Positions 54,923 through 55,455 of a stretch of DNA of 64,000 nt are shown piece by piece. The stretch is taken from assembly GCA_030648255.1 (NCBI GenBank), contig JAUSHZ010000007.1, forward strand, positions 24,404 to 88,403, read 5' to 3'. Under the pieces are notes generated by a model. It did not search any database. It saw only the letters and a list, made by a program, of their open reading frames with translations, and was not told where the DNA came from. Each line of letters starts with the position of its first letter. The stretch's first letter is position 1. The translations under genes and the position numbers were made by a program. The DNA is from a bacterium (GTDB taxonomy: Bacteria > Patescibacteriota > Minisyncoccia > Minisyncoccales > CG1-02-41-26).

Positions 54923-55455
54923 ACAAAACAAAAATTCTTTCTCTCATTTATTTCACCGCCCTGCTGGGTGTGTCTATAGTTGCGCCATTGTTTCACTTTC
55001 AGCCAATTACTGGCCCCATTGTTAACGCTTGCTTATTTATTGCCACAGCTATTTTGGGCGTTCAGGCTGGCATTATGCTTGGGCTTTTGCCAAGCTTGGT
55101 TGCTTTATCAGTTGGCACCTTGCCAGCTCCCCTAGCCCCAATGGTGCCTTTCATTATGGCCAGCAACGCTATCATGGTTGTTGTTTTCGCCGAAGCCACC
55201 GAGTGGCTTCGGAGGACGAAGCCACTCGGTGGCTTCCAAAATTCTTTTCGTTTTTTTACAGGCGTTATTTTGGCAAGTGTTTTAAAATTCTTATTTTTAT
55301 TCTCCACCAGCTATATTGTTATTCACTTAATCGCTCAAAAACCAATTGCCCAAAAAGCATCTGTAATGATGTCCTGGCCCCAGCTCACCACCGCCCTCCT
55401 GGGCGGCCTCCTCGCTTTTGCTGTTCTAAAAGTTTTCCACAATCAAAAATCTTGA
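54898..55455 (+). CDS. Polytopic membrane protein (ECF S-component-like guess)
   Basis: 185 aa with 5-6 TM helices; carries an in-frame GC-rich nested palindrome at 55192-55236. Confidence 0.6.
   Translation: MPYKILTLNKTKILSLIYFTALLGVSIVAPLFHFQPITGPIVNACLFIATAILGVQAGIMLGLLPSLVALSVGTLPAPLAPMVPFIMASNAIMVVVFAEATEWLRRTKPLGGFQNSFRFFTGVILASVLKFLFLFSTSYIVIHLIAQKPIAQKASVMMSWPQLTTALLGGLLAFAVLKVFHNQKS
55192..55236 (+). repeat. Nested GC-rich palindrome inside a coding sequence
   Basis: gaagccaccgagtggcttcg - gagga - cgaagccactcggtggcttc (20-bp perfect arms, each arm itself a hairpin). Encodes ..EATEWLRRTKPLGGF. Confidence 0.85.

Follow-up and report, generated by a model that had tools for sequence, protein, structure and literature searches.

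How a perfect palindrome can lie within the coding sequence of a membrane protein without interrupting it is the question raised by a 45-nt block (55192-55236) in patescibacterial DNA. The stretch analysed comprises 64 kb and is referred to below as the window. The first-pass annotation had read the block as a palindromic mini-element inserted in frame, of the kind described as Rickettsia palindromic elements (RPE).

Structure of the block

Direct reading and a repeat search both found the two 20-nt arms, GAAGCCACCGAGTGGCTTCG (55192-55211) and CGAAGCCACTCGGTGGCTTC (55217-55236), to be complementary at 20/20 positions around a 5-nt spacer, GAGGA, just as the annotation had stated. Its description of each arm as a hairpin also holds, since each folds alone into an 8-bp stem with a 3-nt loop (GAAGCCAC-CGA-GTGGCTTC), and together with its flanks the first arm has 10 bp paired (55190-55212). 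The parts of the locus are as follows.

54898..55455, plus strand: host gene, ECF-transporter S-component-like membrane protein, 185 aa (Pfam PF12822, structure model, Foldseek)
55192..55251, plus strand: lineage-specific coding segment, residues 99-118, EATEWLRRTKPLGGFQNSFR, in place of the ancestral approximately 6 residues YLKxKN
55192..55210, plus strand: hairpin unit 1, GAAGCCA-CCGAG-TGGCTTC, 19 nt, 8-bp stem, loop CGA; codes EATEWL
55211..55217, plus strand: spacer GGAGGAC between the units, 7 nt; its outer G and C lengthen the palindrome to 20 bp and leave the loop GAGGA
55218..55236, plus strand: hairpin unit 2, GAAGCCA-CTCGG-TGGCTTC; codes KPLGGF

Units 1 and 2 are exact reverse complements of each other down to the bases of the small loop. 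The lineage-specific segment consists of the palindrome and a 15-nt tail (QNSFR), and this tail is common to the closest insert-bearing alleles. The block encodes residues 99-113 (EATEWLRRTKPLGGF) of the 185-aa ORF, so that the claimed in-frame coding of 15 residues is borne out and the frame stays open. The block is also, as had been claimed, far richer in G+C (64.4%) than the remaining gene (42.7%); the 64-kb window has 37.1%.

The block is predicted to fold with an energy of -43.3 kcal/mol (z -9.2) in the RNA form and -27.8 (z -10.1) in the DNA form, and the most stable 60-nt fold in the window is found in this region (z -7.4). An origin by chance or by faulty assembly is of negligible probability. 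The data are metagenome assemblies, and nothing else speaks for an artefact; against it, the expected number of perfect, closely spaced 20-nt inverted repeats per 64 kb is about 2e-6 and none was seen in 100 shuffles, the element is in frame, and it is conserved across independent assemblies and sequencing runs, the same elements recurring in loci L161 and L162 and in L164 and L165.

A terminator or attenuator is ruled out, as the stem lacks a T run directly after it; the scan reported no intrinsic terminator or attenuator at the block, and a T-rich stretch begins 6 nt past the stem. No Rfam family reaches its gathering threshold at the block, where the matches were just generic miRNA-precursor hairpins of 19-26 bits against thresholds of 68-100, and assignment to a known RNA family was rejected. 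A search for the 20-mer with up to 3 mismatches allowed gave no second copy within the 64-kb window.

Host gene and predicted protein

The host protein matches PF12822 weakly, at 32.9 bits against a cut-off of 30.7. Its AlphaFold model has six helices (pLDDT 86.5), and the top Foldseek matches of the model are the S components RibU and ThiT (TM 0.57-0.68, probability 1.0). Profile and modelled fold thus both identify the protein as ECF S-component-like. The model shows the insert prolonging helix 4 (77-105) as well as the loop that leads on to helix 5 (106-115). This loop is positively charged and is, by the positive-inside rule, probably cytoplasmic. The closest database proteins come from metagenome-assembled genomes of Patescibacteria/Paceibacteria.

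The gene overlaps the end of a [FeFe]-hydrogenase-like (HydA-like) gene (53231-54922), which is preceded by a NuoF-like gene (52142-53167), and the order NuoF-HydA-S is kept in relatives. In some of these (L164:3387-8187 and L166:2911-8272) the NuoF-like gene is set apart from the HydA-like gene by a whole inserted ECF transporter module, which the window does not have. Its components are a fused EcfA-A ATPase, EcfT/CbiQ and three to five proteins of about 140-190 aa that are candidate S components.

One may ask whether the peptide itself was selected as a functional extension of the transporter loop, the palindromy being incidental or a relic. As this would predict, the reading frame is never interrupted, and helix 4 is longer in the model by virtue of the insert. 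The peptides, however, vary freely between elements (ATEWL..KPLGG, GTEFL..KELGS, GVKLL..KEFNS) while complementarity of the DNA is exact, the same DNA units occur in unrelated proteins, and the insert is the least confident internal part of the model (pLDDT about 70). We regard selection for the peptide as very unlikely.

Insertion into the loop and its turnover

The 160 orthologous loci of the host gene that were fetched gave 137 distinct loops, which were compared between two invariant anchors. The loop has 24 residues in 121 of the 137 and 23 in a further 4, compared with 38 in the window. About 125 of the distinct loops thus have the short ancestral form (..FxYLKxKNYW..), to which the window adds approximately 14 residues; the DNA of an empty site reads TTT GCC TAT CTT AAG GAA AAA CAT TTT. 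Proteins that are 89-91% identical outside the loop may have it empty or filled. Since orthologues without a palindrome keep the 24-residue loop even at this level of identity, the comparison indicates that the 45-nt block is an insertion relative to the ancestral loop. An alignment of orthologues had been proposed in the annotation as a check, and those free of palindromes do not share the loop of the window.

All loops that exceed the ancestral length by 10 residues or more are palindromic in their DNA (window, L001, L053, L105 and L058). Relatives at 70-91% identity display three states of the loop: short ancestral, type A nested palindrome and type B palindrome. Type A loops consist of GAAG units and type B loops of GTGTCAGAC or GTGCCAGGC palindromes, an example of the latter being GGTGTCAGACAAGTGTCAGACAT|ATGTCTGACACC. 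Empty, type A and type B states are intermingled in an NJ tree, in which the resolution afforded by a 160-residue protein is too poor for independent gains to be counted. The L164 allele is a mosaic in which the left flank (TGGTGCCA) is of type B and both core and right flank are of type A; L172 carries one hairpin alone at the S-loop site. A right-hand tail (QSPFR-like) is common to the six closest insert-bearing alleles, and some differences therefore arose in place and not by fresh insertion. These comparisons show the S-component loop to be a hot spot with fast turnover of different palindromes.

Related elements in other genes

Thirteen type A elements align on a common plan, GAAG-N11-CTTC, spacer, GAAG-N11-CTTC, with the two units exactly reverse-complementary to each other; it is the 19-nt plan of unit 1 in the window that recurs in these 13 related elements. 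Nine of the 13 have a 7-nt spacer and the others one of 10 or 13 nt, so that the elements measure 45, 48 or 51 nt overall, and stem length ranges from 17 to 21 bp. The purine-rich spacer of the focal element has its complementary type (TCCCC, CCCAA) in other members of the family. The cores fall into GCCAC-CGA (window, L161), GGAAC-CGA, GTTGC-CGA, GGAGTT-N and GGAGTG-A.

Whether copies exist in other ORFs had been named in the first-pass annotation as a further check, and the same architecture, partly with the same 17-19-mers, was indeed found in related genomes, in genes for NuoF-like proteins and for ThiI. In-frame copies lie in the NuoF-like gene at L163:8176-8220 and L164:3238-3282, with the peptide GVKLLRxTKEFNSL, which is absent from the orthologues of L081, L001 and the window. 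In ThiI an in-frame element (L003:12088-12138) shares the 17-nt core of its unit exactly with the S-loop element of L164. Single units, GGAAGGAG-N5-CTCCTTCC, are found in two ThiI loops of L053 and in one ATPase of L012. Hairpins of the form AAG-N11-CTT number 56 in 1.88 Mb compared with 6-15 in shuffles. The sampled DNA holds about 3 independent sites outside the S loop, and most copies are intragenic.

The copies that share a genome in L163 or L164 resemble each other no more closely than do copies from different genomes, which is unlike a recently active MITE. As to other marks of a MITE, inverted repeats are trivially given by the arms, neither the S-loop nor the NuoF junctions showed a recognisable target-site duplication, and no IS was seen. 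The S-loop core of L164 is one mirrored base off its own NuoF copy and its nearest S-allele relatives have another core, which suggests ectopic replacement between copies. A scan of 43 ORFs of the window detected neither a transposase nor a Y1 HUH domain, and the annotated flanks of L163, L164 and L166 showed none either. Scans of viral contigs with three unit sequences returned 0, 8 and 3 single matches, about the number that a rough estimate predicts for so large a collection. A single element peptide is too short as a query, and a 45-aa concatenate produced no candidates in other proteins. The words CCGAG/CTCGG, which are the commonest tri-loop context of G+C-rich hairpins in the loci, were considered as a special recognition word and rejected: their excess is a sampling effect, because almost all cases are the S-loop elements themselves.

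The main rival to a dispersed family is a local origin, by which replication template switching (snap-back, quasi-palindrome) at a permissive loop would have turned host sequence into a hairpin and then duplicated it in inverted form, hairpin-templated correction keeping the four half-stems identical, with no dispersal. Unit 2 begins at the ancestral K-E codons of the S loop (AAGGAA), a coincidence that counts against a mobile family and would also fit local origin, and in NuoF the host's own AAACAAACCTTG is similar to unit 2 in its 3' half. The single hairpin of L172 is a possible intermediate, and the single-copy state of the 20-mer in the window and the lack of a transposase in the scanned ORFs and flanks point the same way. 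Set against this are the identical 17-19-mers and the 19+7+19 plan at non-homologous sites in different genes and genomes, as well as the 8-bp stem GGAAGGAG/CTCCTTCC, which is conserved with variable loops at three unrelated sites. On balance we consider a purely local origin rather unlikely, and the evolution of the arms bears on it further.

Evolution of the arms

Pairing was analysed in the alignment of the 13 type A elements for both the long hairpin and the two small hairpins. In both structures 96% of alignment cells are paired. There were 54 double-sided changes compared with 4 one-sided changes, all of the latter at the two outermost pairs, and even the small-loop bases are mirrored between the arms in the 13 elements. 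The near-absence of G-T/G-U intermediates argues for copying at the level of DNA rather than selection on an RNA helix; the alignment shows complementarity to be kept at the DNA level. Perfect complementarity with almost no G-T intermediates is also what local template switching would give.

The rate of change in the arms was set beside that of fourfold degenerate sites in three pairs.

Window and L161: arm identity 36/38; fourfold site identity 0.59
L171 and L163: arm identity 38/38; fourfold site identity 0.57
L171 and L053 (proteins 58% identical): arm identity 34/34; fourfold site identity 0.48

Given the fourfold rates, the probability of such arm identities is 7e-7 to 1e-11. In other close pairs whole blocks have changed in all four half-stems simultaneously. 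Because arms are conserved in some close pairs and replaced as blocks across the four half-stems in others, their evolution is punctuated, with stasis within subfamilies and wholesale replacement between them. Under local origin the identical core of L053 and L171, with empty lineages between them, is hard to obtain by independent events, and unbiased correction leaves the slower evolution of the arms compared to fourfold sites unexplained.

Quasi-palindrome mutations by template switching have reportedly been described in E. coli by Ripley and by Lovett. The likeness to the focal family is that the process acts on DNA, perfects inverted repeats and alters both arms at once. It was, however, described for single mutational events, and the same units at unrelated sites are left unexplained by it.

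Conservation of the arms well beyond that of synonymous sites, a stem length held at 17-21 bp and a very stable predicted RNA fold are features that a host-selected hairpin would also have, such as an RNase III site (about 20 bp), an element acting on mRNA stability or translational pausing, or a protein-binding cruciform regulating the NuoF-HydA-S operon. Several hairpins do occur in this one operon (53164-53217, 54532-54554 and, in HydA, L161:1099), but their clustering reflects the sampling of loci. Moreover, the element is absent from most orthologues, some of them about 90% identical; the same elements sit in unrelated soluble proteins (ThiI) and other palindromes in enolase and VTT genes; the G-U intermediates expected under RNA selection are missing; and the block is not terminator-like and matches no Rfam family. 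Selection by the host for a regulatory hairpin is accordingly judged improbable, and clearly so.

Comparison with known palindromic repeats

The GTAG- and CGTC-tagged repetitive extragenic palindromes (REP) and their dimers were described by Di Nocera et al. 2013 (PMC3733652). Like the focal family they have short palindromic units, each about 20 nt long with a stem of 8-9 bp and a loop of 3-5 nt (PMC3733652). The units of REP and REPIN form inverted pairs a few bases apart which fold separately or as one long hairpin, and in the focal element we find correspondingly 19-nt units, a 7-nt spacer and a 20-bp long hairpin. Conserved stems, variable loops and division into subfamilies are further likenesses, as is the presence of some copies in genes, in frame, within loops or linkers, where they code for 20-30 residues. 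The concept of the REPIN is said to be that of Bertels and Rainey.

There are also differences. The focal family does not carry the GTAG or CGTC tag; its conserved end, GAAG/CTTC, lies within the stem. CGTC/GACG does stand beside some units (window, L171, L170 and the NuoF copies), but at the wrong end relative to the CCA tail and inconsistently, and assignment to CGTC-tagged REPs was rejected. The focal dimer is perfect and its copy number appears low, and most copies in the sampled DNA are intragenic, whereas REPs are high-copy and mostly extragenic. No cognate RAYT (Y1 HUH) was seen in the 43 window ORFs or the annotated flanks of L163, L164 and L166, and Patescibacteria are not among the phyla reported for REPs.

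Precedent for palindromes lying in frame is given by intragenic REP dimers (20-30 residues encoded) and by RPEs, as far as these are treated in PMC3733652 and PMC10969869. RPEs are about 100-150 bp in length, encode a conserved peptide of about 30-50 residues and occur in dozens per genome in Rickettsiales (Ogata et al. 2000, 2002, as summarised in PMC10969869). By that summary the likeness is that palindromes, falling into several subfamilies, are inserted in frame in genes unrelated to one another where the protein fold tolerates them, and that the genome is reduced and A+T-rich. The focal family is inserted in the S-component loop, a NuoF-like linker and a ThiI loop, a loop position being evident in the model. 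Measured against the same summary, the focal element differs in being 45 nt long and encoding 15 residues, in having peptides that differ between relatives, in being present as one exact copy in 64 kb, and in its host, a Patescibacteria MAG. The element works like an RPE, then, but falls outside RPEs as summarised there in size, in copy number within the 64-kb window and in host.

Mitochondrial double-hairpin elements, GC clusters and repetitive hairpin-forming elements are likewise tiny G+C-rich double hairpins of A+T-rich genomes that are also found in coding regions (PMC4478555, PMC2800124). They have no known transposase of their own either; in contrast to the focal family they are organellar, unrelated in sequence and usually imperfect. 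Such double-hairpin elements (DHEs) are exemplified by those of Allomyces. No report of elements like the present ones in Patescibacteria or the Candidate Phyla Radiation was found in the papers searched.

Origin and significance

Taken together, the block is probably a member of a palindromic mini-repeat family of Paceibacteria-type Patescibacteria, comparable to REP dimers/REPINs and to RPEs. The RPE-like reading of the first-pass annotation stands as regards the insertion and the in-frame copies in unrelated genes, but the RPE family is not involved, the element being 45 nt long and from another phylum. In descriptive terms the focal family is one of untagged REP-like palindromic repeats able to sit in frame in genes.

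The block is a 45-nt insertion in which a 19-nt hairpin unit (GAAG-N11-CTTC) is present twice, in inverted orientation and with 7 nt in between. Copies may have spread through some process of DNA copying in which the hairpin is recognised or used: an unseen enzyme might transpose them in trans, or the hairpin might direct ectopic gene conversion or replacement. Selection would then act as a filter, the survivors being those of a length that is a multiple of three, free of stops and located in permissive surface loops. No host function is required for the element, which may well be neutral for its host. The mechanism of copying may, with modest probability, be a new one.

One may speculate further that 45-nt palindromes of this kind are self-propagating, an undescribed class spreading without a dedicated transposase through hairpin-primed copying or ectopic conversion that homes to hairpins. 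This is a doubtful proposition. If true, it would account for hot-spot loops, mutual replacement of palindromes and the evolution of four half-stems in concert, and it would constitute a general source of variation in protein loops of these reduced genomes.

Under the preferred reading of a REP-like family, in-frame palindromic repeats, so far a curiosity of Rickettsia and a few other bacteria, would extend to Patescibacteria, and their occurrence there suggests that the phenomenon recurs with genome reduction, in tiny A+T-rich genomes. The form taken here is that of very small perfect double hairpins turning over at loops of the S component and of NuoF-like, HydA-like and ThiI proteins. It would account for odd lineage-specific loop insertions in these proteins, which may serve as strain-level markers, and it offers a compact system for asking how palindromes arise, are copied and stay perfect.

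Further palindromes and other features of the window

Two other palindromes of the window are possible relatives of the focal element.

16587..16641, no strand assigned: possible relative in the rplX-rplE spacer, perfect palindrome with 22-nt arms and 11-nt loop TGGAAGCCCTT, GAAGC..GCTTC ends and the word ACCGAG
62686..62709, no strand assigned: possible relative, intergenic, perfect palindrome GCGAAGCGCATGCGCTTCGC with CGAAGC/GCTTCG ends as in the focal element

Hairpins of the form GAAGC..GCTTC are present at three loci of the window (the focal block, 16587-16641 and 62690-62705), making 5 units against 0.37 in shuffles, and it is the terminal words GAAGC/GCTTC alone that recur in the two other palindromes. 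The annotation had remarked on the words gaagc..gcttc in the rplE hairpin and in 'S modules'; they do occur in the rplX-rplE hairpin, but no tie to 'S modules' emerged. A perfect palindrome homologous to 16587-16641 lies at the MacB-VTT junction of L001 (15331-15389), with 14/22 arm positions the same and the loop GGGGAGCCCTT, and another, different palindrome lies at the same junction in L164 (14356-14406). The 16587-16641 type looks like a second dispersed palindrome family.

In-frame palindromes of other sequence were found in HydA (L161), VTT (L164), ThiI (L081, L040) and enolase (L155). The HydA-like gene of the window has an in-frame imperfect hairpin at 54532-54554, TTACAGCGCT-CCGAG-TGCTGTAA, with the peptide AYSAPSAVK, and at the same site in L161 (1099-1135) there is a perfect 37-nt palindrome, GAGCCGAGCTCCC-11-GGGAGCTCGGCTC. 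By this comparison the HydA site appears to be another hot-spot loop. Two ThiI loops hold different in-frame palindromes depending on the genome (L003:11119-12327, L081, L164, L040, L053), among them L081:17253-17297 with 76% G+C and the perfect 36-nt palindrome L040:11269-11304. An enolase-like ORF (L155:7039-7086) has a 48-nt nested palindrome consisting of TATCCGAGGTCCGACCTCGGATA-TT-its complement.

The spacer between the NuoF-like and HydA-like genes (53164-53217) contains a 14-bp G+C-rich hairpin, GAGACCCGACCTCC..GGAGGTCGGGTCTC, the third most stable local fold in the window. At 47630-47659 a nested palindrome with one mismatch, TCCGCCAGAGGCGGA|TCCGCCTTTGGCGGA (70% G+C), occupies the last codons of a sigma-70-like ORF and overlaps the next ORF.

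Structured spacers composed of repeated modules, about 150-190 nt each, lie between the minus-strand genes for ribosomal proteins (12000-23000, also about 1200-2600 and 27700). One module is a 30-nt A+T palindrome, GTTTTAAATTTTTAGTAAAAAATTTAAAAC, in at least 12 copies, and another is the hairpin TGTGTGAGTTTTCAAGC..GCTTGAAAACTCA at 14826, 15416, 16966 and 19581; G+C-rich hairpins are found in these spacers as well, for example at 14966-15025. The ORF finder reads the modules as 'MKTHTISNM' leaders, and no Rfam family reached its gathering score on them.

A tRNA (55582-55653, 72-73 nt) with anticodon UGA (serine) and C37 is without the long variable arm that a bacterial tRNA-Ser has. ARAGORN detected it, whereas Rfam did so in the small-region scan only (43 bits). 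A DUF3800-V RNA (48983-49080; 41.9 bits, above the gathering score) adjoins a gene for a DUF3800 protein (49116-49784). Finally, a low-G+C island (31-32%) at 32000-36000 contains an N6/N4 DNA methylase (33463-34305) and a DUF6996/DUF6997 protein (34302-35141), adjoins a LexA-like gene, and is likely to be a restriction-modification island.
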